Shown: positions 45,841 to 63,975 of the stretch, one piece after another
Layout of the letters: every line of letters begins with the position of its first letter
How positions within the stretch are numbered: the first letter of the stretch is position 1
Assembly: GCA_016188545.1 (NCBI GenBank)
Contig: JACPHO010000006.1
Span: 693-64,692 of the forward strand
DNA from: Candidatus Shapirobacteria bacterium
Lineage (GTDB): Bacteria > Patescibacteriota > Microgenomatia > UBA12405
Reading direction: 5' to 3'
DNA length: 64,000 bases
Position numbers and translations under genes: made by a program
Notes under the pieces: generated by a model
Told to the model about the DNA's origin: nothing
Seen by the model: the letters and a program-made list of their open reading frames with translations, nothing else
Database searches by the model: none

Positions 45841-45879
45841 CAACTTTACAAACTTTATTAACTTTACAAACTAACTCCC

Positions 45880-46996: not shown

Positions 46997-47017
46997 TTTT
47001 TAATAATTTAAACCAAA

Positions 47018-47770: not shown

Positions 47771-47780
47771 TTCTATTTGA

Positions 47781-47815
47781 ACCAAAAAAACCCGCTCGTA
47801 AGGGCGGGTTTTTTT
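47781..47815. terminator. Terminator hairpin AAACCCGC-TCGTAAG-GGCGGGTTTTTTT (repeat copy 1)
   Basis: A-tract + GC stem + T7; follows the rplA stop. Confidence 0.75.
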
Positions 47816-47816
47816 A

Positions 47817-48893
47817 TTATCCCAATTCCACTGCCGATACTTTTGTAAGTTCTTGCCATTCTATAGTCTCTGGAGATACTTTTTGAACTGTTCCCTCATA
47901 TAGGTCAAAAACAAATCTATAGTTTTCATCGTTTCCGACAATTAGACAAGCACCCATTCCATAAGAGTCAGATTCTTTTCTTCTACCTAGCCCAACTTCG
48001 GACCAACTAGTTTTGGCCACAATTTCTTCATTATGTATCTGACCACCAGGCAGGTATGCCAATACCACAGGAAACTTTAATTTAAATAAAGTCATCTCAC
48101 TTGTATCAAAAATATTTTCACCTCCCAACATTGTGGTTAAAATAGACTTTATATCTTCACCACCCACTACGGCCTTAACCACCTCTTCTCGTATTTCAAT
48201 CTGTTTTTCCAAGTTAGTTTCACCTTTAAACATAGCCACCAACATTGCTACTGCCTGCAATTCAGTAAACTCCACAAATTTAGAAAATTGCTCTGCTGTG
48301 TCACCATCACCATAAAATTTATTTATAAGCATCATTGACTCATCCGACAACAGACGGTTTTCCCAGAGGCCTTTTGCTTTTTGAAAAACTCCATTCCAAT
48401 CATTCTCCACAGTCGCTTCTTTTTTTATAACTGGAGTTTCCTCCTTAGCTCTAAAACTAGCAACGGCTTTTCTCACCTCAATCATATCCACACTCTGTTC
48501 TCTTTTTTGAACAACCTCCTGCCACCTTACCATAGCAATCCAGTAAATTCTTTCCAAATAATCCTTTCGGACATCACCTTTTAACCCAGAAATGCCATAT
48601 ACATCCTGCCTCGACACTTCAGCCACCATTGCATTTCGCATCTCATCATCATGTTGCAAACGCCAATATGCACTACAAGTTGCTATCGGGTATTTTTCTA
48701 GACTCTGCATCATTGTCAGACTTACTCTAATTACAGTATCATTCACCTTAAACCCCTCTTTGATTTCATCCATAGCTAATAACACCCTTGCCTCAACCTG
48801 ATTTATTGCACCATCACCAATTTTTCGGGGCTGTCTTTCACTTGGCTGGACCATTCCCACCAAAGAATCCAACATATCTCTTCTTGCTGACAT
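47817..48893 (-). CDS. Hypothetical protein bracketed by duplicated terminator hairpins
   Basis: 358 aa from the ATG at 48893; the ORF-track N-terminus (to 48968) reads through the hairpin at 48908..48943 and is rejected. Confidence 0.45.
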   Translation of the reverse strand: MSARRDMLDSLVGMVQPSERQPRKIGDGAINQVEARVLLAMDEIKEGFKVNDTVIRVSLTMMQSLEKYPIATCSAYWRLQHDDEMRNAMVAEVSRQDVYGISGLKGDVRKDYLERIYWIAMVRWQEVVQKREQSVDMIEVRKAVASFRAKEETPVIKKEATVENDWNGVFQKAKGLWENRLLSDESMMLINKFYGDGDTAEQFSKFVEFTELQAVAMLVAMFKGETNLEKQIEIREEVVKAVVGGEDIKSILTTMLGGENIFDTSEMTLFKLKFPVVLAYLPGGQIHNEEIVAKTSWSEVGLGRRKESDSYGMGACLIVGNDENYRFVFDLYEGTVQKVSPETIEWQELTKVSAVELG

Positions 48894-48907
48894 GTAAATA
48901 TTGTAAC

Positions 48908-48943
48908 ACTGAATAAAAACCCGCTCGTCAGGGCGGTTTTTTT
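48908..48943. repeat. Second near-identical copy of the terminator hairpin (AAACCCGCTCGTCAGGGCGGTTTTTTTT)
   Basis: About 30/32 identity with 47781..47815 in the same orientation: direct repeats flanking the 358-aa gene. Confidence 0.6.
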
Positions 48944-48966
48944 TGATTTGACAATCTATACTAGAC

Positions 48967-49515
48967 ATGTTATTCTATACAAAATTGTATATGATAAATA
49001 AACTAGATATTTTATTAAAACAGCCTCAAAAAATATATCACACCAATGATTTACGAATTTTGTGGAACATCACCAAACTTACTACTCTCTACCAAACTAT
49101 ATCCCGGCTTATTAAAAAAGGTGTTTTAATTAAAATACACAAAGGGCTATATTGCACCATTCCCATTACCAATCTTGACCCCATCGAACTTGGATCTCGT
49201 CTTATTAATCGTTTTTGCTACCTCACCACCGAAACCATTCTCGCTCAAAGTGGAACCATCAATCAATCACCAAACAAAATTACGTTCGTTTCCGACATTT
49301 CCAAAAAAATTACTGTCGGCAATAACACTTATTTATACCGGCAGTTAAATGATAAATATTTATACAATAGTATTGGTATTAATCTACAACCAAACGGAGT
49401 ATTAGTTGCTTCAACCGCCAGAGCCGCTGCCGATGTGCTCTATTTTCAACCCAATTACCACTTCGACAACAATAGTATCATTATTCAAAAAGGAGTTTAT
49501 GATAGCCAACCGTAG
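48967..49515 (+). CDS. AbiEi-family antitoxin/transcriptional regulator (type IV TA)
   Basis: 182 aa; N-terminal wHTH with the characteristic ...LIKKGVLIKIHKGLY motif. Confidence 0.6.
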   Translation: MLFYTKLYMINKLDILLKQPQKIYHTNDLRILWNITKLTTLYQTISRLIKKGVLIKIHKGLYCTIPITNLDPIELGSRLINRFCYLTTETILAQSGTINQSPNKITFVSDISKKITVGNNTYLYRQLNDKYLYNSIGINLQPNGVLVASTARAAADVLYFQPNYHFDNNSIIIQKGVYDSQP

Positions 49516-50224
49516 AGTCGATATTATTCATAAAGTTCATTTATTACGAGTCTTAACTAAAATTGTTGATAATCCAATTTTATCTCAGTCACTATATTTT
49601 AAAGGTGGAACTTGCGCATCAATGCAAAATATTTTAGATAGGTTTTCTGTTGATTTAGACTTTGATATTAATCCTAAATCAAACGAAAACACTTTAAGAA
49701 CCGAATTTCACACCATTTTCAAAAAACTAGATTTCACCCTCGATCAAGAAAGTCAAAATGCTTTAGAATTTTTTCTCAAATATAAAAACGATCCAAATCA
49801 GCGTAACACTCTCAAAATCGATGCTCTAAACTTTCAGGTTAAGTCAAATTTATATGCTCCAGTTTTTCTTCCCGAAATCAACCGAATTGTAAATTGTCAA
49901 ACCAAAGAGACAATTTTTGCCAACAAATTGGTTGCCATCAAAGATCGTTTTGACAAACACGAATCAATCGCCTGCCGTGACTTGTATGACATTCATCATT
50001 TTTTCATGATTGGTTTGCAATATCGATCAGAAATCATTGTTGAAAGGACAAACCTTTCTCCTCAAAGATATTTTAAATATTTAATTGATTTCATCAAATC
50101 CAAGATTACACAAACCTTAATCGACCAGGACCTCAACACTTTACTATCACCAGAGTCATTTAATAAAATCCGCAAAATCCTCAAACCTGAAGTGCTCCTC
50201 CTATTGCAAAATCAAGAAAAATAA
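49499..50224 (+). CDS. AbiEii/AbiGii-family nucleotidyltransferase toxin (DUF1814)
   Basis: Start ATG 49499 preceded by AAGGAG; YFKGGTCASMQNILDRFSVDLDFDI matches the GGT...RxSxDxD NTase motif; overlaps AbiEi by 17 nt. Confidence 0.65.
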   Translation: MIANRRVDIIHKVHLLRVLTKIVDNPILSQSLYFKGGTCASMQNILDRFSVDLDFDINPKSNENTLRTEFHTIFKKLDFTLDQESQNALEFFLKYKNDPNQRNTLKIDALNFQVKSNLYAPVFLPEINRIVNCQTKETIFANKLVAIKDRFDKHESIACRDLYDIHHFFMIGLQYRSEIIVERTNLSPQRYFKYLIDFIKSKITQTLIDQDLNTLLSPESFNKIRKILKPEVLLLLQNQEK

Positions 50225-50244
50225 TCTGATATAATCAAAACCTA

Positions 50245-51603
50245 ATGTCTCCCGTTCACTGCGGTCTCGATTTTGGTACCACCAATTCTTCACTGGCGGT
50301 ATTTTCCGGCAATACACCTCAGATTATCCCAATAGATGAGCAAAATAATAATCCATCCGTTTTAAAATCCCTCCTGTACCTCAACCCTCGCCAAGAATCA
50401 GCCGTTGGTGCATCCGCCATCAAAAACTACCTGTCAGATCTCGACACCCTCCCATCTGTCCCCCTAAGACTCGAAGAAACTGGCCGATTGATCAAAACTT
50501 TTGGACCATCAACTGCCAGTGGAGTCGGTCCAGTAGTTTTTGTCCCCGAAATTATTGAAGTTGATGACAGTGGTCGCGGACGACTGCTTCAGTCTCTCAA
50601 GTCCGTATTAACCAACCCCAGTTTCACCGGCACCAACATCTTCGGTAAATTTTACTCTCTTGAAGAACTCCTAGGAATACTCATGCAGGAAATAAAATCA
50701 TCTGCCGAAACACACCTAGGCCACACTCTTGATTCCGTTGTTCTTGGTCGTCCTGTCAAATATGTCGGTACGGGTCAAAATCAAACTGCCATCGACCGCA
50801 TGGTCAGAATTGCCACTTCAGCCGGATTTAAAAACATCGAATTCGAGCTAGAACCAATCGGTGCCGCCCTTAACTACGGAATTAATATCAAAAATAACCA
50901 AAACATCCTTGTTTTTGACTTTGGCGGAGGAACTCTGGATATCTGTGTTATGAAACTCCCTGAGAAAAAAATTCTTTCTGTCTCTGGTCGAGGCATAGGT
51001 GGAGATCTTCTCAATTCTCGTATCGTGCAAGCTAAGATTGCCAAATATTTTGGCGTCTACAGCCAGATTAATCACAAAGTCCCCTTCCCTAGTGACTACC
51101 GCCTGGCTCTAACCTCATGGTATCGCACCTCCCTACTTAAAAACGTCAAAGATTTAGGCATGCTCAAAGATCTATCGATTCGCTCCACTGATCCAGAATA
51201 TGTCCAAAACTTTTGTAATCTAGTCGAACACGATTACGCTTTTGATTTTTTCTCCACCATTGATCGCTTAAAGGTAAGTCTATCAACAACTGACTCTGCT
51301 GATTTTAACTTTCACCGTTCCCATCTCAACCTACAACAAACTATCACCCGAAATGATTTTGAGAACTCGATAATTAATGAACTCGATGAATCAAAACTTT
51401 GTATCAACGAAGCTTTGTCAGCCGCAGGTCTAAAATCCACCGACATCGACCAGGTTATTCTCACCGGCGGTTCTTCCCAAACTCCTGTCTTTAGGCAATT
51501 AGTTGATAGTATATTTACCCCTGACAAAATTATTGCCTCTGACTACTTCACCGCGGTCGCCGCTGGACTCAGTATCCGCGCCCACCAGATATTTGGTTCT
51601 TAG
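50245..51603 (+). CDS. Hsp70-family actin-like ATPase, nucleotide-binding domain only
   Basis: 452 aa; CGLDFGTTNSSLAV (phosphate-1), VFDFGGGTLDICVM (phosphate-2/connect-1), ILTGGSSQTPVF; no substrate-binding domain. Confidence 0.65.
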   Translation: MSPVHCGLDFGTTNSSLAVFSGNTPQIIPIDEQNNNPSVLKSLLYLNPRQESAVGASAIKNYLSDLDTLPSVPLRLEETGRLIKTFGPSTASGVGPVVFVPEIIEVDDSGRGRLLQSLKSVLTNPSFTGTNIFGKFYSLEELLGILMQEIKSSAETHLGHTLDSVVLGRPVKYVGTGQNQTAIDRMVRIATSAGFKNIEFELEPIGAALNYGINIKNNQNILVFDFGGGTLDICVMKLPEKKILSVSGRGIGGDLLNSRIVQAKIAKYFGVYSQINHKVPFPSDYRLALTSWYRTSLLKNVKDLGMLKDLSIRSTDPEYVQNFCNLVEHDYAFDFFSTIDRLKVSLSTTDSADFNFHRSHLNLQQTITRNDFENSIINELDESKLCINEALSAAGLKSTDIDQVILTGGSSQTPVFRQLVDSIFTPDKIIASDYFTAVAAGLSIRAHQIFGS

Positions 51604-51648
51604 CTAAATACCCTCTTCACAAACGGCTGGTATTATTTAGTCCCACAA

Positions 51649-53448
51649 GTGATAAATTTAACTATGCCCTCCCGCTCAAAATCATCTATTAACTACCCCT
51701 TCCTCACTTTTGCAGCCGATATCTGGGAATACACTCGTGGCTATCATCGCCGTTTTCTCACTTGGTACACCCTATTCTTTATCTCCTCACTAATAAGCTT
51801 TTTGGTTCCTGTTTATATGGCCAAGATAATCGACAGTGTCGCCATCAAACAAACCGGCAATATTGTCTATTATATTTTAATAATATTTGCTATTGAGTTT
51901 GGCCGCATCATAGGTCGTAACCGTATCAAGTTAGCTATATACAAGTTGGCTGAAATCTGTCGGTTATCAAGTCGCCAGCGCTGGATTTCCAAAGTACTTA
52001 GTTTCGATCTTAAGTGGCATGATAGTCAAAATTCCGGTAAAAAAATCTCCATCCTGTCTCGCGGTTCAGACCAACTAAAAGGACTAATCCAGTTTATTAC
52101 TAAAGGTGGTGGTGGTATCGACATCTTCGTCAGTATTATCGGTGTCATAGTTATTTTTTTCACTCTGAACTACAAGTACGCCATTCTTTGTTTTGTTAAC
52201 GTCACCTTCTACATGGGTACACTTATTTATCAGACCCGCCGCCTCAACCAAAAACGTCATCAGATCAACCGGACCTCCGACAATGTCATGGGTAAAAACT
52301 TCGACTTTTTTTCCAACATGTCACTTATCAAAAGCCTAGGCATTGGTCAAAATATCAACCAAGCTCTGTTTGTCAAAGAATCACATCTTAAGGAAAAAAC
52401 CATAAAATACACCATTTTGGAGTTCAATAAATGGATCTATATCAACACAGTTTCCCAAGTCTGTCATATCATCGCCATTTTTCTAGTCGTCGATGACATC
52501 CTCAACCAACGAATATCTATCGGTTCTTTTTTTATCTATAACGGTTACATTAACCGGCTTCAAGACGGTTTGGGAGGTCTAGCTGAATGGGTCAACGATC
52601 TTATTGAAAAATACTTAGGCCTCTACAGAATTCATCAACTGTTACATTCCGGAACTACTACCACCTCAAACGGACAACAAGCATTTCCTGATAATCTAGA
52701 ACTTATCAAAATAGACCATCTTTCTTTTGGCTACAACAACTCCCGTTTAATCCTCGACGACGCCAACCTATTACTAAAATCAGGCAACAAATATGGCTTT
52801 GTTGGTATTTCCGGATCAGGTAAGTCGACTCTTAGTAAATTACTTCTAAAACTCTATCTTCCCTCCTCAGGCACTATCTACTTTAATAATCGAAAAATTA
52901 CTCAAATAAATACCGATTCAATTCACCAACACATCAGTGTCGCCCCTCAAGATAACGAAATATTTAACCTGTCTTTCAAGGAAAACATAACAATTGCCTC
53001 CACAAGTAAACGGTTCAATCCCCAATTATATGAGCTAGCTATCAAAACCTCTGAGTGTCGGTCAATCCTCGACAAAATTAAAAATAATCATCAAACAATT
53101 CTCGGAGAAAAAGGTATCAAGTTGTCGGGTGGTGAACGCCAAAGATTAGGTATTGCCCGGGCGATCTACAAAAACACTCCACTTATAATTTTTGACGAAA
53201 GCACTTCTGCTCTCGACTCTAAAACCGAATCAAAAATCCTCGCTAGTCTAGAAAAATACTTTGCTTCCAAAACTATCATCTGGATAGCCCACCGCCTATC
53301 CACCCTTCGTTTTACTGATGAAATTATCGTCTTTGATCAAGGGAAAATAGTTGAACAGGGAAGCTTCAAGTCCTTAATTTCAAAAATGGGACACTTCTAC
53401 GAACTCTGGCAAATCCAAAAAAAGACCAACATAAAACGGCTTTCTTAA
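51649..53448 (+). CDS. ABC transporter, fused permease-ATPase (type I exporter)
   Basis: 599 aa; 6 TM then GISGSGKSTL, LSGGERQRLGIARA, IIFDESTSALD. Confidence 0.85.
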   Translation: MINLTMPSRSKSSINYPFLTFAADIWEYTRGYHRRFLTWYTLFFISSLISFLVPVYMAKIIDSVAIKQTGNIVYYILIIFAIEFGRIIGRNRIKLAIYKLAEICRLSSRQRWISKVLSFDLKWHDSQNSGKKISILSRGSDQLKGLIQFITKGGGGIDIFVSIIGVIVIFFTLNYKYAILCFVNVTFYMGTLIYQTRRLNQKRHQINRTSDNVMGKNFDFFSNMSLIKSLGIGQNINQALFVKESHLKEKTIKYTILEFNKWIYINTVSQVCHIIAIFLVVDDILNQRISIGSFFIYNGYINRLQDGLGGLAEWVNDLIEKYLGLYRIHQLLHSGTTTTSNGQQAFPDNLELIKIDHLSFGYNNSRLILDDANLLLKSGNKYGFVGISGSGKSTLSKLLLKLYLPSSGTIYFNNRKITQINTDSIHQHISVAPQDNEIFNLSFKENITIASTSKRFNPQLYELAIKTSECRSILDKIKNNHQTILGEKGIKLSGGERQRLGIARAIYKNTPLIIFDESTSALDSKTESKILASLEKYFASKTIIWIAHRLSTLRFTDEIIVFDQGKIVEQGSFKSLISKMGHFYELWQIQKKTNIKRLS

Positions 53449-53471
53449 TCTAGCTTTTACTTTTTTTAAAT

Positions 53472-53696
53472 CTACGAGTTAGCCTCAGTGATTGCCTTTT
53501 CCATATTTGCCGCCGCCCAACCAAGTGTTTTTCTCATTACCGGTACCGACACGCCTTCATCTTTAGCTGCTTGTGCTACGCTCAATCCCTTATGAGCCAC
53601 CTCTACGGCTCTCCTGGCTTGAAAGCCTGGCAGGGAAACTTCTAAATCTTCGGGTGATATCCCAGATAAAAAATCAACGGCTCCTTTTGTACTCAT
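53472..53696 (-). CDS. Small HTH protein (GC-rich; possible transposase OrfA-like remnant)
   Basis: 74 aa; HTH segment GLSVAQAAKDEGVSVPVMRKTL; GC content above its flanks. Confidence 0.25.
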   Translation of the reverse strand: MSTKGAVDFLSGISPEDLEVSLPGFQARRAVEVAHKGLSVAQAAKDEGVSVPVMRKTLGWAAANMEKAITEANS

Positions 53697-53736
53697 ACAA
53701 ATATCATACCACTATCAATTTTTTATAACTCACAGT

Positions 53737-54150
53737 TTAGATCAATTCGTCCTTAATTAGCTTCGGAAATAAATTTTGATACATACTTTCCGATACCCCT
53801 ATCTGATTATTAGTATAATCGTCTTTTGAATACCACAACATTTCTCCTATCTCTGCACCTAAAACTATTACTCCAGAAAATTCTTTCACCAAATAACAGT
53901 TAACTCTCTGGTATTGTTCGCCTTCGCCAATCCTAGCCTCATATGAAAAATATTTTTCAATAGTGGTTGGAGATATCGACATTTCCTCACCCAACTCTCT
54001 ATTCATCGCCATTAGGTCATCCTCCCCAGTCTCCACTTTTCCTCCAGGGGTAAAATAAAACTCTTTATAAAACCCCTCATTTCCTTTTACCAGTAAGATC
54101 TTTTTATCCTTAATGATTAAGGCCGATACTCTTGTCCTGACTATCTTCAT
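53737..54150 (-). CDS. NUDIX hydrolase
   Basis: 137 aa; Nudix box GGKVETGEDDLMAMNRELGEEMSI. Confidence 0.8.
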   Translation of the reverse strand: MKIVRTRVSALIIKDKKILLVKGNEGFYKEFYFTPGGKVETGEDDLMAMNRELGEEMSISPTTIEKYFSYEARIGEGEQYQRVNCYLVKEFSGVIVLGAEIGEMLWYSKDDYTNNQIGVSESMYQNLFPKLIKDELI

Positions 54151-54153
54151 TAG

Positions 54154-55020
54154 TTATTCTAATCCCAACTCAATTATTTTATCGAGTAGCTTTGAATACG
54201 ATATTCCAGCTGCCCTCGCCTCTTTTGGCAGTAATGAGTTTTTTGTCATCCCCGGTAAGGTATTGATCTCCAGCACAAATATTTTTCCCTCCCTAACTAT
54301 CATATCGACTCTCGCAAACCCATTCGCTTTAACAGCTTTATAAACTTTCAAAGTTATCGCCTCCACCTTTCTTTGTAATGCTGGCGATATTCTGGCGGGA
54401 CATATTTCATCGGCCATACCATCAACATATTTTGCTTCATAGTCAAAAAATGGATTTTTAGGATGAATTTCAATAATAGGTAACACTACTGGTAAGTCGT
54501 TTCCCAACACCCCACACGACAGTTCCAGTCCCTCAATATATTTTTCCACTATCGCCTCCTTACTATATTCCTTGGCTTCAACAATCGCTTTAGTCAGCTT
54601 GTTTTGTTGTTTGACAATACTCACTCCCACACTAGAACCGCCGTCCACTGGCTTAACCACACAAGGTGTTTCAGTTGTCAGTGGTGCCATTAATATCCCC
54701 TCACTCTCCATTACCTTTCGGAATATCATTTTGTCCATCCCTACCGCCGACGCCATCACTCCGCTCCCGGTGTATTTGATTCCTCTTGTTTCTAAGTATC
54801 CCTGAATCGCCCCATCCTCTCCACTCTTACCATGTAAAACCAGGAATGCGATATCTGGTTTAAATTCTGTCAGCTTATCTATCTCGCTGGGCATGTCCAC
54901 TGACAAAACTTCATATTTCTTTTTAGATAAGTTATAGACTACCTCGCTGCCTGAGTTAAGTGACACCACCCTCTCACTACTGTCTCCACCCATTAATACA
55001 GCTACTTTTAATTTTGTCAT
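54154..55020 (-). CDS. ddl: D-alanine--D-alanine ligase
   Basis: 288 aa; KVAVLMGG, FLVLHGKSGEDGAIQGYLETRGIKYTGSG, ATP-grasp C-terminal blocks. Confidence 0.8.
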   Translation of the reverse strand: MTKLKVAVLMGGDSSERVVSLNSGSEVVYNLSKKKYEVLSVDMPSEIDKLTEFKPDIAFLVLHGKSGEDGAIQGYLETRGIKYTGSGVMASAVGMDKMIFRKVMESEGILMAPLTTETPCVVKPVDGGSSVGVSIVKQQNKLTKAIVEAKEYSKEAIVEKYIEGLELSCGVLGNDLPVVLPIIEIHPKNPFFDYEAKYVDGMADEICPARISPALQRKVEAITLKVYKAVKANGFARVDMIVREGKIFVLEINTLPGMTKNSLLPKEARAAGISYSKLLDKIIELGLE

Positions 55021-55107
55021 AACCGATTATACTACACTATTTACTTTATTAACACTAATATTAAGTTCAAACTTTACTTTTACAACATAAACTGATATAT
55101 TAGAAAC

Positions 55108-56235
55108 ATGGCCGAATACAAAACATTAAATGAAATCACTGTTTGCAGCTCCTCTCTTGTACACAACTACCACTACTATCAAAAGCTATCTCCACATGCT
55201 GTTATTTGTCCCGTCATCAAGGCCAACGCCTACGGTCATGGTTTGCGGGAAGTCGCCAAGATTATTGACGAACACCTGAGTCCACCCTATCTCATGGTCG
55301 ATTCTCTCTATGAAGCCTACGAACTTAGCAAGCTCAAAACCCGCACACCTATCCTTATCATGGGTTTCACCGACCCACAAAACTATGCTGTTTGGAAAAA
55401 GCTCCCCTTTACTTTCACTGTCTACGATCAAAGCTCACTCTTAGCACTTAACCAACACCAAAAAGGCGCTAAGATTCATATCAAACTCGATACTGGCATG
55501 TGCCGTCTAGGAATTCAAAAAAAAGATGTCAAGAGTTTTATAAAAACTCTCCTCGAATGTCGCAATCTTAAAGTTGAAGGTATATACTCCCACCTTTCTC
55601 AAGCTGATGATCCCAAAAAAACCACCTTTACCAACAGCCAGATCAAATCCTTTAAAGAAATGGTCTCTATTTTTGAATCTGCGGGTTTTACCTTCAAATA
55701 CAAACACATTGCTGCATCAGCTGGTGCCAGCACCATCCATGATCCATATTTTAATCTTATTAGACTAGGCCTCGGTTTTTATGGTTATTCCCCATTTGGC
55801 CCCCACACTATCCCTGGTCGTCTTGATCGTCAATCTCTACGTCCCGCCCTCAGTTTTACTTCACGTATAGCTCTCATCAAACAAGTCAGTCCTGGCAATC
55901 AGATCGGCTATAGCGGTTCCTATCGTGTCAAACAGGACGAAACCATAGCCATTCTCACTGCCGGTTATAACGAAGGTATCCCCCGGGAGTTAAGTAACCG
56001 TTTTTCTTTTCTCGTCAAAGGTACTCAGTGCCCAGTTGTTGGTAATATCAGCATGGACATGACCACCATCAAAATCCCCCGCACAATTAATGCTCTTATC
56101 GGTGACACCACCACCATGATCTCTCCGGACATAAATTCACCCTGTTCTATTTATAAGTACGCTATAACCATGGATACGATTCCATACACCATTCTAACTG
56201 GACTACATCCCTCAACTAAAAGGAGGATAATATAA
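55108..56235 (+). CDS. alr: Alanine racemase
   Basis: 375 aa; VIKANAYGHGL (PLP-Lys). Confidence 0.8.
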   Translation: MAEYKTLNEITVCSSSLVHNYHYYQKLSPHAVICPVIKANAYGHGLREVAKIIDEHLSPPYLMVDSLYEAYELSKLKTRTPILIMGFTDPQNYAVWKKLPFTFTVYDQSSLLALNQHQKGAKIHIKLDTGMCRLGIQKKDVKSFIKTLLECRNLKVEGIYSHLSQADDPKKTTFTNSQIKSFKEMVSIFESAGFTFKYKHIAASAGASTIHDPYFNLIRLGLGFYGYSPFGPHTIPGRLDRQSLRPALSFTSRIALIKQVSPGNQIGYSGSYRVKQDETIAILTAGYNEGIPRELSNRFSFLVKGTQCPVVGNISMDMTTIKIPRTINALIGDTTTMISPDINSPCSIYKYAITMDTIPYTILTGLHPSTKRRII

Positions 56236-56240
56236 CACTT

Positions 56241-57509
56241 ATGAAAAATTTCATTAGCTCTTTTGTACTTACTTACCTTCGCCTTCTCGCTCATATCCAA
56301 CTTAGTAAAATCCGACTACTTCAAAAAATTAAAGGTAAAAAATTAACCATTGTCGGCATCACCGGTTCTGCAGGTAAGTCATCTACTATCAATGCCTGTG
56401 AGTCAACCCTACAAGACTATCTAAAAGTCAAAACCACAGCCGGTTCAAACTCCGAATCGGGAATTCCCCTAAACATCCTCGGGATCAAAGTTTCTTCATT
56501 TACCCCTGTAGACTGGCTAAAATACTGCGCCTTGGCACTAAGGAAACTGTTTGCCAACTGGGAAAGCTGTGATATCTACCTAGTCGAAATGGGTATTGAT
56601 AGTCCAACAGAACCCAAGAACATGTCATACCTGCTCAAAATAGTCCATCCTGATATTGGAATTTTTCTCAACGTCAACCTCACCCACTCCCAAGAATTCG
56701 AAAAAACCATATCCAGCCACCTCATAGGAGATCAAAAAACATCAAAAGTAATTGAGCTTATCGGCGCGGAGAAAGCCAAACTCGTCAACTCGCTACCGTC
56801 AACTGGATATGCACTGATTAATACTGCTGACCCGACAGTTCTCAAAACCACTCTCACTCTTAGAGCCAAAAAAATAATTCTCAAACCAGTTCATCTTGAC
56901 TTTCCACACTATGCTCCCCCAACCGATTTTGACATCTCCATCTCCGCCGCGATTAACTTAGCCAAAGTATTTGGGGTTGATGAAAAAACTGCCATAACCG
57001 GCTTGAAACAAAATCTGATTCTTCCTCCTAGTCGGTCCTCTCTATTCTCTGGAATAAACGATTCAACAATCATCGACTCTTCATACAACTCCTCACCTTT
57101 AGCCACCACTGCCATGCTTCAGGTACTCTCAAAACACAATAGCCCTCGTATTGCCATTCTCGGAGACATGCGTGAACTCGGAGATGAATCACCTGTCGCT
57201 CACCAAAAACTCTACCAACAGGCTGTCAAAGTAGCCAACACTATTATTAGTGTTGGACCGGAGACTCAAAAATATTTTGGTGATAAGTCTATAAAGTTCT
57301 TATATTGGTGGCAGGTTGGTGAATACCTACTCTCTCACAAAGAACTGCTAAAAAACGCTACTATTCTTGTCAAAGGATCTCAAAATACGATTTATCTCGA
57401 AGAACTTGTCAAACAACTTTTAGCTGATAAATCAGACGAATCAAAACTCTGCCGCCAATCCTCCTACTGGCTCGATCTCAAAACTAAGTTCCGAAGTTCT
57501 AATACTTAG
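56241..57509 (+). CDS. murF: Mur ligase family, MurF-like (UDP-MurNAc-tripeptide--D-Ala-D-Ala ligase), lacking N-terminal domain
   Basis: 422 aa; IVGITGSAGKSST P-loop, VEMGIDSPTEPKNMSY..IGIFLNVNLTHS; adjacent to ddl/alr. Confidence 0.6.
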   Translation: MKNFISSFVLTYLRLLAHIQLSKIRLLQKIKGKKLTIVGITGSAGKSSTINACESTLQDYLKVKTTAGSNSESGIPLNILGIKVSSFTPVDWLKYCALALRKLFANWESCDIYLVEMGIDSPTEPKNMSYLLKIVHPDIGIFLNVNLTHSQEFEKTISSHLIGDQKTSKVIELIGAEKAKLVNSLPSTGYALINTADPTVLKTTLTLRAKKIILKPVHLDFPHYAPPTDFDISISAAINLAKVFGVDEKTAITGLKQNLILPPSRSSLFSGINDSTIIDSSYNSSPLATTAMLQVLSKHNSPRIAILGDMRELGDESPVAHQKLYQQAVKVANTIISVGPETQKYFGDKSIKFLYWWQVGEYLLSHKELLKNATILVKGSQNTIYLEELVKQLLADKSDESKLCRQSSYWLDLKTKFRSSNT

Positions 57510-57514
57510 GAGTG

Positions 57515-57705
57515 CTTGAGACGTTTCCCAAGTGGAGGTTTCGCAGTAACAACTTTCAAACTATCACCAGATCGCCTATTGTTTTAGGTTGTTTTGAAAG
57601 GAACTTTCGCAGTCAGTCTGCTATTTGGTTGGAGACTGACGAGAATGTAGGTGACGGCGGTACGTGCGCTTGAGATTATGTTAGCCAGCCGATTACCGGT
57701 CCGAC
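57515..57705. repeat. Structured intergenic repeat element, copy B
   Basis: Shares three sequence blocks with copy A (30845..31025), the first two in swapped order; contains a perfect 8-bp hairpin GTCAGTCT..AGACTGAC. Confidence 0.55.
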
Positions 57706-57752
57706 TCAAAACAAGCTAAAACAACAGATATGGTGAAAAAACTTTTCAAGAG

Positions 57753-58388
57753 TTACAACGTCTCGATCTGATCCACAATCGTCACAATCTCTTGTGGCTT
57801 TCTTGCCACCCAGTTTGGAACATATCCCATCAACGCTTCCTCCGAATTATATCCCCAAGTTACCGCAATAATCCTTACTCCAGCCTTATGACTGGCAATC
57901 ACATCTTTAGTCTCATCCCCAACATAAATCAACTGATCTTTGTTTAATTTTCTTTTACGAATAACTTTTTTTAGTTTTCTGGCTTTTCCCCACATCAGTC
58001 CACTCGGAACAATATATTCAAACACTCCCTCCAATCCATTCTCACTAAAAAATCTCTGTATATTTTCTTTTGAATTTGAAGACAAAATTCCCATTTTTAT
58101 CCCCTGTTTTTGTAATTCCCGAAAAACTCCAGGCATTCCCGGAAACATATTGATGGTACTAATATCGTTTTTGAGTTCCTTAATTGCTCTTCTTCCTACT
58201 CTGATAAATTGAAACCAACTCACTCCGAATGCTTTCATGGCTTTTTTTGTCCCCAACCGCTTAAATTCTCTTTGCATTTCTTCAGTTACCGGCTCATAAC
58301 CATACTCCGGAGCCAACCGATTAAGAATTTTTACAGCCGCATCAAATGTGTCAGCAATCGTCCCATCAAAGTCAAAGACAATCTCCAT
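57753..58388 (-). CDS. HAD-superfamily hydrolase (phosphoglycolate-phosphatase-like)
   Basis: 211 aa; MEIVFDFDGTIADT (motif I), YVGDETKD. Confidence 0.75.
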   Translation of the reverse strand: MEIVFDFDGTIADTFDAAVKILNRLAPEYGYEPVTEEMQREFKRLGTKKAMKAFGVSWFQFIRVGRRAIKELKNDISTINMFPGMPGVFRELQKQGIKMGILSSNSKENIQRFFSENGLEGVFEYIVPSGLMWGKARKLKKVIRKRKLNKDQLIYVGDETKDVIASHKAGVRIIAVTWGYNSEEALMGYVPNWVARKPQEIVTIVDQIETL

Positions 58389-58390
58389 TA

Positions 58391-58960
58391 CTATCCATTA
58401 AATTCCTTATTCTTTCTCATTTCTTTTTCAATGAGATTTCGTAAGTAAACCGAGCGAGGTATCATTCTCTTTTGAGCTACCCAATCAAGGTAAGCCAAAA
58501 TCTTGGGACTCACAAAAAAGTTAAATCGCACGTCCGCCGTCTTTTTGGCCTCTTCAACTGCATCTACCAACACCTTCTCCAAATTCTGGTCATTATATTC
58601 TGCCCAAATAATTCTGTCGTCTTTTAGCCCCCTAAACACTGTTGGTTCTGCCCCTGTTCGGTAGAGAACTACTACGGGTTTTGATTTCTCCAACGCCAAT
58701 GTTATTTCATGACCAATATGCAATGTTGATGGAAATGAACCTTCAATCACCGAAAAGTCAGCCTGGTCTATCCACTTAACAATATTTTTGTAGTTTCTCA
58801 CCCTATCCTCATCTCCCATTTCCAAAGCCTTGTCAAGGGGCATCGACAAAGTATCCTCGAGGACCTTATAACCCTCTTTGCGTAACAACTCAACAATCCG
58901 CCTATACGAGTCGAGCAACTTCTCCTTTTGGTACAAAGCACCGGAAAAATATATCTTCAT
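58391..58960 (-). CDS. Nucleoside 2-deoxyribosyltransferase-like Rossmann domain fused to C-terminal RHH-like segment
   Basis: 189 aa; N-terminus MKIYFSGALY..; C-terminus VSPKILAYLDWVAQKRMIPRSVYLRNLIEKEM is CopG/RHH-like. Confidence 0.4.
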   Translation of the reverse strand: MKIYFSGALYQKEKLLDSYRRIVELLRKEGYKVLEDTLSMPLDKALEMGDEDRVRNYKNIVKWIDQADFSVIEGSFPSTLHIGHEITLALEKSKPVVVLYRTGAEPTVFRGLKDDRIIWAEYNDQNLEKVLVDAVEEAKKTADVRFNFFVSPKILAYLDWVAQKRMIPRSVYLRNLIEKEMRKNKEFNG

Positions 58961-58972
58961 CCCGCTATTATC

Positions 58973-59749
58973 TCAACCAACCAGTCCAAAAGTCAATATT
59001 ACCATTCTATCGATCACAACTTCTCTCCCACTCACTCGCTCGTGAAAGTTTTTTTGCCACTTTTTAAACTCAACATTTGTCAGATATGCCAAAACAGAAA
59101 AAGGCCGCGACTGTGTCCACATCTCCAAGGTCGATGGTGTAAACTGCTTTTTAACAGTCAAAATCACCCTATTTATAAGAGAAAAACCACCATCCGTAAA
59201 CGCTCTGACTATCACCGGCTCGTCCGGAGTTCTGGATAATTCTCTTTTCAAAACCTTTTCGAGTGACCGACAATAAGGTAACCCATAAAACTGCTCATGA
59301 TTAGTACTGGCAATAATCATGCTCCCCTTATCGCTAAGTATGGTCTTAACTCTGTTTACTAATCGTGGCAGATCGCCAACAAAGTGAATGCTTTGAAAAA
59401 ATATCACCAGATCAAACTTTATTGAAGACAGCTTCTCCGTCCAACCATTATCAAAGTCAGCTTTAATTACCTCTACATTAGTGAGCCCCTCTCCAACCAC
59501 ATTGTCCCTCAAACTTATCAGCATTTCCTCGGACAGGTCTACCCCCACAAACTTTTTATGTGGATACAGTTTTGCCAGTGGAATCAACAATCTACCCGAA
59601 CCACAGCCCAAATCTAAAATCGTCTCACTTGTCTCAACCTTCAGAGATAACTCTATCAACACCTTGCACAAAGCCCTTCTTCCCAAGGCTCTCTTGTGGC
59701 TAAAGTCTTTGGCCAAAACCGCTAAAATATCTTCCCTGACTAGACTCAT
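58973..59749 (-). CDS. Class I SAM-dependent methyltransferase
   Basis: 258 aa; motif I ILDLGCGSGRLL, acidic motif II VGVDLSEEM. Confidence 0.75.
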   Translation of the reverse strand: MSLVREDILAVLAKDFSHKRALGRRALCKVLIELSLKVETSETILDLGCGSGRLLIPLAKLYPHKKFVGVDLSEEMLISLRDNVVGEGLTNVEVIKADFDNGWTEKLSSIKFDLVIFFQSIHFVGDLPRLVNRVKTILSDKGSMIIASTNHEQFYGLPYCRSLEKVLKRELSRTPDEPVIVRAFTDGGFSLINRVILTVKKQFTPSTLEMWTQSRPFSVLAYLTNVEFKKWQKNFHERVSGREVVIDRMVILTFGLVG

Positions 59750-59795
59750 AAACTTGGAGATTATATCTTAAAAAAGTTGAATAATCCACAACTTA

Positions 59796-60809
59796 TCACC
59801 ATTCACTGTCATACCAACTGACAGCTTTGACCACTGCTTCCTCCCACCCACTCCCAACAGGTCCTTTTAAATTGTGATCCGCTCCTTTGTAAATCACCAA
59901 TTCAATATTTTTTCCAATCCCTTTGAGATTTGTTACCACAGTGTTTTGCCACTCTACTTTCACCCACTCATCCTGGGTTCCTTGCTGAATCATGATTGGA
60001 GAATTTATCCATTGATAATAATTGTCAAATGCATAACGTCTGGCATCGTAATGTCTTTGAAACTCATCAATCACATCTTTTACTGGACTCCCCTCATCTA
60101 TTGTTGACAACACACTTTCCGGAAATGGTTGGGTCATCGGTGCCCACATTACTGTGGGGTATTGCCCCCCAGTTACCTCCAGTACCGACATTACTATCTG
60201 TCCACCATTGCTATGCGCCCAAAAGCCGATTCGACTTTTATCTACCCAAGGAATCCTTTTTACCGATTCAAGTAAATCCAGTACTTCTACCACCTTATGA
60301 AACCGTGCCTCCAGCATATCAGTCGACTCCACATCACTATTGGCATAACCCAAAAAATCCAGACTGATTGTTACGTATCCTTGTTTTGCCAATTCATCCG
60401 CCATCTTCCAACTCCCCGACCCGGGATAATACCCTATCTTTTCGGCGTATCCCCGAACCATGATGATTACTGGACTTAAACTACTCCGCTCCGGCATATA
60501 GCTCATCATCCCACTAATCCATTTACCGTCGCTCTTAAATCTTACTTCTCTAGTTTCAAATTCGTTTTGACTTTTTACTTTTGAATTTTGAATTTTTCTC
60601 CTATCCTCCACTTCTTTTATCGGACCTAAGATTTCTATTTCTGAAGCTATTGGTATTCGTTTTCGTAAGCTGTCAAAATCATATTTTTCTAGACTCAATT
60701 CAATAATCTCCCTAGCAGATCCTTTTGGATTAATAGTTTCTCGTGGCCAAAAATAATATCCTAAAATAATTGAAATAATACAAAATATTACAATAATTGC
60801 CTTTTTCAT
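59796..60809 (-). CDS. Membrane-anchored alpha/beta-hydrolase (S9/dienelactone-hydrolase-like)
   Basis: 337 aa; N-terminal TM; nucleophile elbow GFWAHSNGG; low-complexity insert KIQNSKVKSQNEFE. Confidence 0.65.
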   Translation of the reverse strand: MKKAIIVIFCIISIILGYYFWPRETINPKGSAREIIELSLEKYDFDSLRKRIPIASEIEILGPIKEVEDRRKIQNSKVKSQNEFETREVRFKSDGKWISGMMSYMPERSSLSPVIIMVRGYAEKIGYYPGSGSWKMADELAKQGYVTISLDFLGYANSDVESTDMLEARFHKVVEVLDLLESVKRIPWVDKSRIGFWAHSNGGQIVMSVLEVTGGQYPTVMWAPMTQPFPESVLSTIDEGSPVKDVIDEFQRHYDARRYAFDNYYQWINSPIMIQQGTQDEWVKVEWQNTVVTNLKGIGKNIELVIYKGADHNLKGPVGSGWEEAVVKAVSWYDSEW

Positions 60810-61945
60810 AACTCCAATATCTTCTCCACCGCATTCCTGCTATTTATCATCTCAAATCTGTGTTCTAGTGGGAAAATATCCGCTGCCTTTTTCTCTATCC
60901 ATTTTATCTCCCAGCTAAAGTATTCTTTTTTATAACTCTCCACTACCAAATCTACCTCTCTGCCCCCATATTCCCTGTAAAAATATTGTTTCCACAATTT
61001 ATCGCAATTTCGCCTAACTTTTTCCACTTCCACAACCACCCAGTTTTCAAAAAGTCCCCCAAGATCAGGTCTTTTATCCAATTCTCTAAAATCCGACACC
61101 AATGCGTTTCGTATTCCCAAATCCATAAAATAAATCTTCCTTGCCTCTGATACTGACTTTCTGGTATTTAATTTAAACGATGGCAATTCTACCAAAATAT
61201 AATTTCTACAAAAAATATCCAGATAGTTGGCAATTGTTGCCGGACTAGATTGCAAGCTACTGGCAATTTCCCGATATGATACCTCCTGACCCAGTTGCAA
61301 TGCCACCATCATCAATACTTTTTTTGCCAATTCAGCACTCTGTAAATCATAAAAATTAACAATGTCCTTAAGTACATATGCTTCAACCAAATTCTCTAAT
61401 TTTTTTACTTTCTCTGTTTCGCCAGTAGTTTCCATTACCTCCGGATACCAACCAAAAGACAATGTCTTGGCCAACTGTTCCCTTGACCACTCTTGTATAT
61501 TAATTTCTTTGGGATTATCATTTTCTTTTGTTTCCCCCAAGGATAGGGGTAAACAATAATATTCTTCAAATCTTCCTGCCAACGTGTCAAAGTCCTTACC
61601 TGCCTTTTTCCGCAGTTCACTGCTACCAGTAGCAATAATCTTTATTTTCAGAACATCATGAATAATTTTTAGTATTTTTGTCGACTCCGGATAGTTTTGA
61701 ACTTCGTCAATCAAAATTACCTTCAAGTCCCCCACTATTTTTTTTAGCCAGTCCACATCATTTTTAAATTTTTCCCGGTCAGTTGAGATATCAAAATTAA
61801 ACACCGGTAAATCCATCTTTTTACCGTAATATTCCAAAATTGTAGTCTTCCCCGATCGTCTCGGCCCCCAAATAAACAATATATTCGTATTGTCTCTGTC
61901 TTCAATATATTTATCTATCTTTTCCTCGATCATTCTTCTAATCAT
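60806..61945 (-). CDS. AAA+ ATPase with DUF4143-like C-terminal domain
   Basis: 379 aa; Walker A GPRRSGKTT, Walker B ILIDEVQ. Confidence 0.65.
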   Translation of the reverse strand: MIRRMIEEKIDKYIEDRDNTNILFIWGPRRSGKTTILEYYGKKMDLPVFNFDISTDREKFKNDVDWLKKIVGDLKVILIDEVQNYPESTKILKIIHDVLKIKIIATGSSELRKKAGKDFDTLAGRFEEYYCLPLSLGETKENDNPKEINIQEWSREQLAKTLSFGWYPEVMETTGETEKVKKLENLVEAYVLKDIVNFYDLQSAELAKKVLMMVALQLGQEVSYREIASSLQSSPATIANYLDIFCRNYILVELPSFKLNTRKSVSEARKIYFMDLGIRNALVSDFRELDKRPDLGGLFENWVVVEVEKVRRNCDKLWKQYFYREYGGREVDLVVESYKKEYFSWEIKWIEKKAADIFPLEHRFEMINSRNAVEKILEL

Positions 61946-62064
61946 ACTCTAACTTAACAAATTAATACCAATTTGTAAAGTCACACTTTCCACTTTACCC
62001 TAAATTTGCCAACTTTACCCCATAATACTTGACAATCTAATAAGAGAGAGATAATGCCTATAAT

Positions 62065-62337
62065 ATGAAAAACTTACCAGAAAATTTAGTCATCCCAGTA
62101 GAACCAACCGCAGAAGAAATGGTCGCAATGCAAAAAAAATTTGACGGCATCTTTCGAAAAGTACTAGTTGCCTGTGACAATATCACCTTTGGTACACCTG
62201 TTTCTGAAAAAAAATTCGCCAAATACCTAGGTGGCCGAGATCAAGTTGAAATATACTACCAAATGAGATCACAACTTCCAGATCTTAAAATAAAGACTGG
62301 TGCGCAACTAGGCATTCGAACGAGACTGAATGGTTGA
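62065..62337 (+). CDS. Hypothetical small protein
   Basis: 90-aa ORF preceded by the conserved motif CTTTACCCCATAATACTTGACAATC and GAGAGAGA. Confidence 0.35.
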   Translation: MKNLPENLVIPVEPTAEEMVAMQKKFDGIFRKVLVACDNITFGTPVSEKKFAKYLGGRDQVEIYYQMRSQLPDLKIKTGAQLGIRTRLNG

Positions 62338-62389
62338 TCTTTTAACCCATAATACTTGACTTATTCATTAGTGAGAGAGAAAATACCTT

Positions 62390-62770
62390 ATGCCAAGAAG
62401 GATTCTTACAGCTGAACAAGGCCTACCCACTGGTCCAATAATGGATGCCGGCATAGTTGAATTAAAAGTAAAACAACTATTAGAAAAGGAGGCTGGTCAA
62501 AAACCTGTTATTCTGGATAATATGGCCATATTAAACCCACGAAATAGAGGGGCTGATCCAGCTTGGCACGGTGGCCATAAAGCAATTCAATTAGTATATC
62601 TTCCCCTAAATGACATACTCGCGGTTCACCGGGCAACAGAAAACGAAGCAGAAGCTGATCGTACTGACATCTACGTAATTCCACTCGATGAAGCCAGACG
62701 TTTCTTTACTGGAACCATAGAAAGCATAACTCATCCAGAGTGGCCAAAAGCAACCAGGATTGGAAGTTAA
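62390..62770 (+). CDS. Hypothetical small protein
   Basis: 126-aa ORF preceded by a second copy of the same upstream motif (TTTAACCCATAATACTTGAC) and GAGAGAGA. Confidence 0.35.
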   Translation: MPRRILTAEQGLPTGPIMDAGIVELKVKQLLEKEAGQKPVILDNMAILNPRNRGADPAWHGGHKAIQLVYLPLNDILAVHRATENEAEADRTDIYVIPLDEARRFFTGTIESITHPEWPKATRIGS

Positions 62771-62799
62771 ACACAATCCCTTTTCTTTTCCATGAACTC

Positions 62800-62990
62800 T
62801 GTTATACTATCCCTTGTTCTACCGAAGACAGCAGGCTTGGCTCGCCAAAACGAAAGTGAAGGCGGCTTATAAGAGATTCATCTCCCCCGCCGAGGCCAAA
62901 TTAGACTTTCTAATTGCGTCCCGAATTCGGGACCTTTTTAGTTTTTAACTAAATTACTAGAGCACTATAGCTCTAAAGCACTAAATCAAT
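62800..62990 (+). promoter_or_regulatory. Candidate ribosomal protein L10 (rplJ) leader with attenuator hairpin
   Basis: GC-rich structured segment (GGCTCGCCAAAACGAAAGTGAAGGCGGC, CCCCCGCCGAGGCC) and GTCCCGAATTCGGGAC + T5 at 62927..62947, directly upstream of rplJ. Confidence 0.45.
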
Positions 62991-63506: not shown

Positions 63507-63541
63507 TTTGTTGTTAATAATTTATTAATTAATTAAAAAAA

Positions 63542-63922: not shown

Positions 63923-63943
63923 TTCTATTTGTTTCAAACTTTA

Positions 63944-63975
63944 ATACCCGCCGCAAGGCGGGTATTTTTATTAAA
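63944..63975 (+). terminator. Rho-independent terminator after rplL
   Basis: ACCCGCC-GCAA-GGCGGGT followed by ATTTTTATT. Confidence 0.7.

Follow-up and report, generated by a model that had tools for sequence, protein, structure and literature searches.

In a window of 64,000 nt (the whole stretch of DNA analyzed) from a metagenome-assembled genome of Candidatus Shapirobacteria (Microgenomates, candidate phyla radiation), the ribosomal-protein genes rplK-rplA (L11-L1) are separated from rplJ-rplL (L10-L7/L12) by 15,221 nt, and the first gene of this interval, an orphan encoding 358 aa, is bracketed by two closely similar hairpins. We consider it likely that this layout arose from an ancient split of the ribosomal-protein cluster together with recombination-mediated stacking of accessory cassettes at the ends of the interposed block. 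The split recurs in the relatives, and the closest of them carry a single hairpin at the corresponding site. Window genes were called by Pfam, NCBIfam, and PADLOC scans; mobility genes were sought among open reading frames (ORFs) of at least 60 aa between 43974 and 63922. Relatives were retrieved with the L1 protein, giving 31 loci (one genome per GTDB species), which were searched by tblastn with all window proteins. The nearest GTDB genome is a Shapirobacteria metagenome-assembled genome, whose locus is called L001 here. The window ends before rpoB.

The rplA-rplJ split in the relatives

The genes secE, nusG, rplK, and rplA are contiguous in the window (45550-47770, plus strand) and stand in identical order in about 30 relatives. 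The genes rplJ and rplL are contiguous as well (62991-63922, plus strand), and the canonical adjacency of rplA and rplJ is absent. The initial annotation had noticed that the order breaks after rplA, and the Pfam assignments agree with it: the genes interposed between rplA and rplJ span about 15.2 kb. It had also taken the entire 15-kb block for a recent insertion and had named a split shared by all relatives, with no repeat, as the sign of an ancient rearrangement. The synteny comparison revealed just such a shared split for the large block, and the claim of a recent insertion of the whole was abandoned. In 18 of 18 relatives having both genes, the distance from rplA to rplJ is 2.2-8.9 kb (median 5.0 kb), and this stretch contains the same core genes; the gap in the window is the largest among the genomes compared. 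Loci that stop short of rplJ have the same genes after rplA as the complete loci, and the additional contigs L032, L036, L041, and L042 are consistent with the split arrangement. Canonical adjacency was found only in L031, a distant outgroup with 30% L1 identity. The core in the relatives is made up, in varying combinations, of ddl, alr, a murF-like gene, an NDT-like gene, and an alpha/beta hydrolase gene, often accompanied by HAD and Hsp70-like genes. In most relatives ddl, murF, NDT, and the hydrolase gene are located between rplA and rplJ, and in several rplJ directly follows the hydrolase gene.

The right-hand half of the cluster has regulatory sequences of its own. Upstream of rplJ, the Rfam L10 leader model RF00557 matched at full length (model positions 1-138) with 33.5 bits, below the gathering score of 44 (E 0.036). 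Inspection by eye found the elements ACCGAAGACAG ... CCGCCGAGG ... followed by a hairpin and a T-run, with a promoter, upstream of rplJ in 18 relatives. We take rplJ to bear its own conserved promoter and a predicted L10 leader. Between the leader terminator and the rplJ start, an 8-nt-period repeat (CTCTAAAGCACTAA-like, about 4.8 copies) occupies 62948-62985, and a similar repeat is found upstream of rplJ in L012.

Because all examinable relatives share the split, with the same core and with an own conserved promoter and leader of rplJ, we regard it as an old and stable rearrangement. Gene order suggests that the cluster broke once, early in the Shapirobacteria lineage, between two separately regulated units. 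A few genes with roles in the cell wall and in nucleotide metabolism (ddl, alr, murF, NDT-like, alpha/beta hydrolase, in many cases with an Hsp70-like ATPase) would have come to stand as a small block between rplA and rplJ in an ancestor common to the Shapirobacteria sampled. The split would be tolerable because the halves are separate transcription units, a strong terminator ending rplKA and rplJL having its own promoter and L10 leader. We found no report of an rplA/rplJ split in candidate-phyla-radiation genomes in the open-access literature.

The hairpin pair, the orphan gene, and the insertion site

The two hairpins (sequences in the table) are identical at 28 of 30 core positions and at 34 of 41 (83%) when flanks are included. 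Their orientation is direct, because the asymmetric loops, GTAA in hairpin 1 and GTCA in hairpin 2, lie on the same strand. Alignment of the copies thus confirmed what the initial annotation had described, namely near-identical hairpins in direct orientation around one unknown gene. A 24-nt hairpin consensus, with up to 3 mismatches allowed, occurred at only 2 sites in the 64 kb (0 expected from 100 shuffles), and the motif was found in none of the 31 relative loci. An exact-pattern scan of 241 million metagenome records returned 6 matches. Three were the orthologous rplA terminator of close relatives, and three lay on unrelated contigs (L033/L037 and L034) and had a GAAA loop, two of them being identical around the hairpin. 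The orthologous rplA terminators of more distant relatives had quite different sequences. Because the motif is rare in the window and in metagenomes and the distant rplA terminators differ, chance convergence within 1.1 kb is very unlikely, and the two hairpins are best explained as homologous.

Hairpin 1 starts 14 nt past the rplA stop and, on the minus strand, 2 nt past the stop of the orphan gene. It comprises a 7-bp GC-rich stem extended to 14 by A-U pairs, a GTAA tetraloop of the GNRA type, an A-tract, and a T-tract, with seven T's following. It folded at -20.6 kcal/mol (z -5.7) on the plus strand and at -16.6 kcal/mol on the minus strand. As a GC stem-loop with a U-tract 3' of a co-directional gene, it has the properties of an intrinsic terminator. 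It is orthologous to the terminator of L001, L035, L036, and L038, where the loop is GCAA, and its left flank is homologous to that of L001 (1/2000 shuffles, local alignment). Hairpin 1 is, we infer, the ancestral bidirectional terminator, predicted to serve both rplA (plus strand) and the convergent orphan gene (minus strand).

Hairpin 2 folded at -11.8 kcal/mol (z -2.3) on the plus strand and at -7.8 kcal/mol (z -1.25, not significant) on the minus strand. Its stem is down to 6 bp, one G-C pair and the GNRA loop are gone, and eight T's follow. It is placed upstream of the orphan gene, 21 nt from the start codon, and immediately ahead of a promoter-like site of AbiE. No co-directional gene ends upstream of it, the upstream gene being on the opposite strand and the downstream genes on the plus strand; no transcription unit of its own direction has its 3' end there. 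An equivalent of hairpin 2 was found in neither L032 nor L017. These features point to a directly repeated copy of the rplA terminator that is decaying. Some damping of plus-strand transcription into AbiE may persist at this copy, and transcripts of the orphan gene would have to pass it in their 5' untranslated region (UTR). Shuffle tests gave no significant similarity between its flanks and the ancestral spacer. The idea that its right flank is the ancestral promoter of the Hsp70-like gene had no support from these tests and was dropped.

Comparison with the relatives located the insertion. In L001, L035, L036, and L038, whose L1 is 84-87% identical to that of the window, rplA is followed by one hairpin and the Hsp70-like gene; the site is empty, and the repeat is present once. 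The order is the same in L042, but the terminator there is a different one. Over all of the closest relatives with rplA, a terminator, and the Hsp70-like gene in this order, L1 identity is 79-87%. The window and L001 (DNA identity about 80-90%) are collinear to about 58.5 kb, the part covered by L001, except for two insertions downstream of rplA. The first, from 47815 to about 50225 (2.4 kb), consists of the orphan gene, hairpin 2, and AbiE; the second, 51588-53468, is the ABC exporter gene. Small indels occur near nusG-rplK. Hairpin 1 is contiguous with the ancestral left flank, and the direct repeats that bracket the orphan gene correspond to the target sequence, the rplA terminator. The initial annotation had proposed insertion by recombination with duplication of the rplA terminator. 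This proposal is supported in its essentials for the hairpin-bracketed gene, for which close relatives have single-copy empty sites, and is not supported for the 15-kb block.

At its right junction the first insertion abuts a retained ancestral -10 element and 5'UTR of the Hsp70-like gene, homologous to TGTTACACTCAAAC...TCTCCCGTT of L001 (26/2000 shuffles); the blastn boundaries were concordant. The AbiE genes were recognized by PADLOC (AbiEi 5e-26, AbiEii 3e-20) and by Pfam, PF08843 scoring above its cutoff (6.5e-16) and PF13338 just below it (23.3 bits, cutoff 25). Being adjacent and co-directional, AbiEi and AbiEii form a predicted AbiE type IV toxin-antitoxin/abortive infection module. The AbiE proteins of L017 are 82 and 76% identical to those of the window (79 and 75% at the DNA level). 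DNA identity between the same two loci is lower for rplA (69.5%) and for the Hsp70-like gene (59%), which hints at an exchange of AbiE between lineages.

The same site holds differing cargo in other relatives. In L041 an 80-aa minus-strand gene sits exactly between the terminator T-run and the conserved promoter of the Hsp70-like gene, and in L017 AbiEi/AbiEii begin 9 nt past the rplA stop with no hairpin. In L032 (L1 73% identical), rplA, a terminator, and a convergent homologue of the orphan gene are followed by the Hsp70-like gene, transcribed away from the homologue; its one bidirectional terminator is unrelated to that of the window. In L003 an insert of about 0.5 kb after rplA (10763-11331) brought a replacement rplA 3' end and a terminator stem of the L032 type (GTAGAGACGCC / GGCGTCTCTAC). 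Stranded downstream are the former rplA tail of 57 nt (LCATMGPSVKVEVIK*) and the former hairpin, which is related to that of the window. This insert contains an open frame of about 107 codons without a canonical start codon and did not match L032 beyond rplA and the terminator stem. L003 is a second and independent case in which an insertion duplicated the junction, and the point 3' of the rplA terminator is used repeatedly by differing cargo. Most variable genes have a GC content, or a GC content at third codon positions (GC3), below that of the core.

The product of the orphan gene is identical to the NCBI hypothetical protein HYV64_05045, and its start codon is backed by alignment with the homologue in L032 (P0002). 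No match was obtained in Pfam, PADLOC, or NCBIfam, and a profile search of the PDB was also empty. A word-indexed protein search returned only the query itself. An exhaustive HMMER search of 1.8 billion representatives (clusters of about 15 billion proteins) found two real relatives and one further weak repeat match. The first relative, P0002, has 334 aa and is 42% identical over the full length; the second, P0003, is a partial sequence of 186 aa limited to the N-terminal domain, from an organism of 47.5% GC and on contigs too short for context. A profile search added no members beyond these, leaving a family of three. The orphan is a real coding gene, because it is conserved over its full length at 42% identity. 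AlphaFold modeling reached a predicted local distance difference test score (pLDDT) of 41 from a single sequence and of 54 from three sequences. These weak models suggest a helical N-terminal part and a small beta-rich C terminus, and Foldseek found nothing in the PDB at E below 0.86. No relatives were found on viral contigs, phages, or plasmids. The only full-length homologue occupies the same position in L032, which suggests that the gene is not a random newcomer. With low confidence, an accessory role of the defense or addiction type seems most likely for it, the sole hint being its position in an islet rich in toxin-antitoxin and defense genes.

A second genome-specific accretion is located at the other end of the block, just upstream of the rplJ leader. 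It comprises an AAA_14/DUF4143 ATPase gene, orf90, and orf126, none of which was matched by tblastn in any of the 31 relatives. The ATPase matched the PADLOC candidate defense family PDC-S01 at 5.9e-87. For orf90 and orf126 no family match was obtained, and they are not paralogues of each other. A 41-nt promoter-like direct repeat of 78% identity (62014-62054 and 62341-62381; CCCATAATACTTGAC ... AGAGAGA) encloses orf90 and precedes orf126. Within the block, orf90 is the second gene flanked by duplicated regulatory sequence.

Proposed origin of the hairpin-bracketed gene

Under the reading we favor, accretion would have proceeded at both ends of the old block and, 3' of the rplA terminator, would have added the orphan gene and the AbiE module. 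Hairpin 2 would be a copy of the rplA terminator left by recombination that joined two cassettes. One possible route is one-sided homologous recombination, in which rplA or its terminator, or else the Hsp70-like gene, would provide the homologous anchor and the other joint would be illegitimate. In an economical scenario, it would stack an rplA-terminator-orphan allele (as in L032) onto a terminator-AbiE-Hsp70-like allele (compare L017), each allele contributing its own terminator copy. The other route would be single-crossover integration of a circularized fragment via the approximately 35-nt hairpin homology. One-sided homologous recombination and single-crossover integration of circularized DNA are documented (PMC3240628), and orphan 3' ends arising from successive displacement have been described at Rhs/type VI secretion system (T6SS) loci (PMC5361080). 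Natural transformation is assumed for this lineage. As for microhomology at the joint, only TGAA is shared to the left of both hairpins, which is not significant. We observe the shared split, the empty sites of close relatives, the coordinates of the junctions, and the folding energies of the hairpins; in which direction the locus changed, from which donor, and by which route is inferred.

Several points weigh against this reading. Neither a donor nor an intermediate was found, be it a hairpin-AbiE arrangement without the orphan or a window-type hairpin with the orphan and the Hsp70-like gene but without AbiE. Sliding identity against L001 along rplK-rplA gave no gradient marking a recombination tract. 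The flanks of hairpin 2 bear no significant similarity to the ancestral spacer, and the hairpin is not assignable to donor or recipient. The junctions rest on one metagenome-assembled contig, and the terminator and promoter functions are predictions. The L032 homologue would be equally compatible with an old resident lost in several lineages, and if the window were sister to the L001 group, one loss would be as parsimonious as one gain.

The last two points favor a reversed polarity, in which the orphan gene, and possibly the hairpin pair, would be an old resident lost from the "empty" relatives, e.g. by recombination between the hairpins. Direct repeats of 30-40 nt are able to mediate such a deletion, and the homologue in L032, whose L1 is only 73% identical, is full-length and has the same position and orientation. 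L032, however, has its single unrelated terminator and no second hairpin. A deletion between the hairpins would leave AbiE in place, yet L001, L035, L036, L038, L041, and L042 are without AbiE. Remnants of the orphan gene were found in none of 32 loci of relatives, and many independent losses would be required across the clade. We judge the reversed polarity to be unlikely, though worth keeping in view.

It is improbable that the rplA 3' end and terminator of Shapirobacteria serve as a dedicated docking site for single-gene cassettes, captured by an as yet unrecognized hairpin-directed recombination activity encoded by the host or by the orphan family. If this were true, the three members of the orphan family would stand for a novel function carried by cassettes, in defense or self-propagation, and tied to the L11-L1 operon.

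Slightly lower still do we rate a dedicated mobile cassette, whether by hairpin transposition of the IS200/IS605 type, integron-like, like a miniature inverted-repeat transposable element (MITE), or by attachment (att)-site integration at the rplA 3' end or terminator. The recurrent use of one site by different cargo, the direct repeats flanking the cargo in the window, and the duplicated target-gene 3' end of L003, as att-site integration yields, would suit such a cassette. No transposase, integrase (IntI included), or other mobility gene was detected among the ORFs searched, however, and the orphan protein has no recognizable catalytic domain. The features of an insertion sequence, transposon, or MITE are missing, there being no transposase domain in the ORFs scanned and the repeats being direct, about 30-40 nt long, and confined to two sites in the window. 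An integron cassette is contradicted by the lack of an integrase and of a hairpin after AbiE or later genes and by the orientation of the orphan opposite to AbiE. Integration of the integrase type at a gene 3' end is opposed by the lack of a recombinase and of any duplicated rplA coding sequence in the window. The 57-nt duplication of the rplA 3' end exists only in L003, whose insert has no recombinase-sized ORF. The cargo of L041, L017, and L032 lacks a flanking repeat, and the orphan family is without viral, phage, or plasmid relatives. Thus, the lack of mobility genes, a hairpin that is not dispersed, and cargo-bearing relatives without flanking repeats argue together against a dedicated mobile element.

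Just as improbable is an assembly artefact, in which the contig would fuse two strain variants at the hairpin common to them and no single cell would have the tandem arrangement. The source is metagenome-assembled, strain variants with different cargo at the locus exist in nature, and look-ups of the exact L1, orphan, and Hsp70-like proteins for a second assembly returned no match. Yet 2 positions distinguish the hairpins, and their longest run of identical bases is about 14, shorter than usual assembly k-mers. The adjacency of rplA, terminator, and orphan is independently present in L032, the homology with L017 begins just after hairpin 2, and composition and GC skew are continuous across the junctions.

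Two further explanations can hardly be upheld. That the hairpins are independent terminators converged under selection for a GC stem, tetraloop, and U-tract might be argued from the almost identical hairpins of unrelated organisms (L033/L037 and L034) and from the similar style of the rplL terminator of the window, but only two distinct unrelated look-alikes exist among the 241 million records, the orthologous rplA terminators of relatives are completely different, the copies are equal in length and in the position of a G-T wobble besides their 28 of 30 identical bases (0 expected by chance), and hairpin 2 has no gene to terminate. That the whole 15-kb block was recently inserted into an intact rplKAJL, the duplicated terminator marking its left end, would fit the size of the gap (15.2 kb against at most 8.9 kb) and the place of the hairpins at the left edge, but it is met by the split and core genes common to all 18 relatives with both genes, by a hairpin pair that encloses just 1.1 kb, by the rplJ leader kept across the clade, and by differences from L001 that are discrete insertions in an otherwise collinear sequence over the part covered by L001.

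Other features of the window and comparison with known systems

The gene content of the block is largely as the initial annotation had listed it: AbiE defense genes (Pfam, PADLOC), an Hsp70-like/ABC pair, and the cell-wall genes ddl, alr, and murF (a murF-like ligase) were all recovered, the latter two sets by Pfam and NCBIfam. The Hsp70-like gene matched the NCBIfam "molecular chaperone" model PRK11678 below cutoff and follows rplA in L001, L003, L008, L017, L020, L028, L032, L035, L036, L041, and L042. The ABC exporter gene is absent from L001, which probably lost it, because L036, L041, and L042 have the gene. What had been called a GC-rich HTH fragment is probably orf74 (53472-53696, minus strand, 74 aa, no family match). 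It is GC-rich (48%) but no fragment, being kept as an intact small gene in L001, L003, L032, and L042.

The repeat element listed in the initial annotation also exists, as a structured non-coding motif between murF and HAD at 57518-57740 (core 57596-57704), enclosed by a 22-nt inverted repeat. A second copy is located at 30842-31019 (core 30897-31019), and a third in L042 (16930-17046) at the same position after murF. The motif runs GACGUUUCC ... GGAGnUUUCGCAG, hairpin, CGAGAAU ... GGACGUG ... GAUUAYCGGUCC. The segment 57560-57740 folded at -67.6 kcal/mol (z -6.4), and RNAalifold on the three copies gave 27 pairs, 10 of them with compensatory changes. No Rfam match was obtained; the motif may represent either a novel small RNA or a small, structured element that is mobile.

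Within the left-hand ribosomal-protein unit, the Pfam and NCBIfam L1 models cover the L1 of the window only from about residue 127-131, the N-terminal half being divergent. An N-terminal extension is common to the relatives (L1 of 241-288 aa), and its counterpart in L003 is K/E/T-rich with a low-complexity look. Spacers elsewhere in the secE-nusG-rplK-rplA unit also gain extra DNA in relatives: about 460 extra nt lie in the nusG-rplK spacer of L001 (L001 8991-9554), and a JGI contig of P0010 has small ORFs in both the nusG-rplK and the rplK-rplA spacers. In L035 and L038 a 60-nt GC-rich element stands between the rplA stop and the terminator hairpin. GC skew is negative in every 1-kb segment of 1-64000 (-0.01 to -0.46), whatever the gene strand, and the whole window, plus-strand ribosomal genes included, seems to belong to a single replication arm in which the given strand has more C than G. 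Far from the cluster, tRNA-Ala(GGC) (19410-19485) has tRNA-like fragments (GTAGTTGGTAGCGCGGTCCGAAAGCTTTCGGACAGGTCA) on either side, at 19276-19319 and 19637-19720, the fragment on its 3' side having a T-arm/acceptor-like end (CCCCTTGGGTCCAC). Neither ARAGORN nor Rfam called these fragments, which could be tRNA pseudogenes or att-type remnants of integration at the tRNA.

Positions of features in the 64,000-nt window (SAM, S-adenosylmethionine)
Feature	Position	Strand	Basis or remark
nrdR	upstream of secE	-	
parE/phd	upstream of secE	-	
orf127	upstream of secE		
SecE	45550-45840	+	Pfam
NusG	45880-46476	+	Pfam
L11 (rplK)	46571-46996	+	Pfam
L1 (rplA)	47018-47770	+	Pfam
Hairpin 1	47784-47815		AAAAAAACCCGCTCGTAAGGGCGGGTTTTTTT
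Orphan gene, 358 aa	47817-48893	-	Convergent with rplA
Hairpin 2	48915-48944		AAAAACCCGCTCGTCAGGGCGGTTTTTTTT
AbiE promoter-like site	48948-48976	+	Promoter scan; TTGACA, 17 nt, TG-TATTCT
AbiEi	ORF 48967-49515, likely start 48991	+	Pfam, PADLOC
AbiEii	ORF 49406-50224	+	Pfam, PADLOC
Right junction, retained ancestral -10/5'UTR of Hsp70-like gene	50226-50256	+	TGATATAATCAAAAC...TCTCCCGTT
Hsp70/actin-fold ATPase	50245-51603	+	Pfam
MsbA-like ABC exporter	51649-53448	+	Pfam, NCBIfam
Conserved core	53472-60809		orf74 (-), Nudix (-), ddl (-), alr (+), murF-like (+), HAD (-), NDT-like (-), SAM methyltransferase (-, sporadic), alpha/beta hydrolase (-)
AAA_14/DUF4143 ATPase	60806-61945	-	Pfam; PADLOC PDC-S01
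Second genome-specific accretion (AAA_14/DUF4143, orf90, orf126)	60806-62770		Just upstream of rplJ leader
L10 leader with terminator-like hairpin (62918-62933)	62804-62948	+	Promoter before it
L10 (rplJ)	62991-63506	+	Pfam
L7/L12 (rplL)	63542-63922	+	Pfam
rplL terminator	63943-63966		Terminator scan

In rplKAJL-rpoBC clusters of the Escherichia coli type, the L11 operon and the L10 operon have separate promoters and are autoregulated by L1 and by L10-L12, respectively. The halves in the window are likewise independent units, with a terminator after rplA and a promoter and L10 leader before rplJ. In contrast to the E. coli type, they stand 2-15 kb apart throughout the lineage, with unrelated genes on both strands between them. 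The "universal" order of L11, L1, L10, and L7/L12 is therefore not obligatory, as one lineage of the candidate phyla radiation keeps genes of D-Ala-D-Ala peptidoglycan between the halves. That the split is kept fits halves acting as independent regulatory units. Annotation and binning based on synteny should take the split into account, and it may be of use as a lineage marker.

Hairpin 1 resembles bidirectional intrinsic terminators between convergent genes in its A-tract, GC stem, GNRA loop, and T-tract and in its stability on both strands. Unlike at such terminators, a second, weakened copy is present in the window where no transcript is expected to end.

The locus shares with flexible genomic islets and defense hotspots a content that varies between fixed flanks (rplA and the Hsp70-like gene or ddl on one side, the hydrolase gene and the rplJ leader on the other). 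It shares with defense hotspots a cargo rich in genes of the toxin-antitoxin or defense type (AbiE, the PDC-S01 ATPase) and in orphans, most of lower GC or GC3. It differs from typical islets in its scale, 0.25-2.4 kb and one to three genes, and in its site inside what is normally the most conserved ribosomal-protein gene cluster. Tiny streamlined genomes still hold small flexible spots that swap toxin-antitoxin, defense, and orphan genes, and these swaps leave behind short duplicates of regulatory sequence that preserve a legible trace of the events.

The closest parallels are homology-facilitated illegitimate recombination and the single-crossover route cited above (PMC3240628), together with the orphan arrays that successive displacement leaves at Rhs/T6SS loci (PMC5361080). 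As in those systems, cargo was added in the window beside a conserved anchor, here rplA and its terminator. The old junction was kept downstream as a direct repeat (hairpin 2 in the window, the 57-nt tail and hairpin in L003), and a dedicated recombinase gene is lacking among the ORFs scanned. The Rhs/T6SS loci (PMC5361080) have a toxin gene as anchor, whereas the anchor in the window is the terminator of a ribosomal-protein gene, and there is one duplication rather than an array. With these differences, the hairpin-bracketed accretion is a new instance of known processes belonging to ordinary genome flux and leaves current concepts unchanged.

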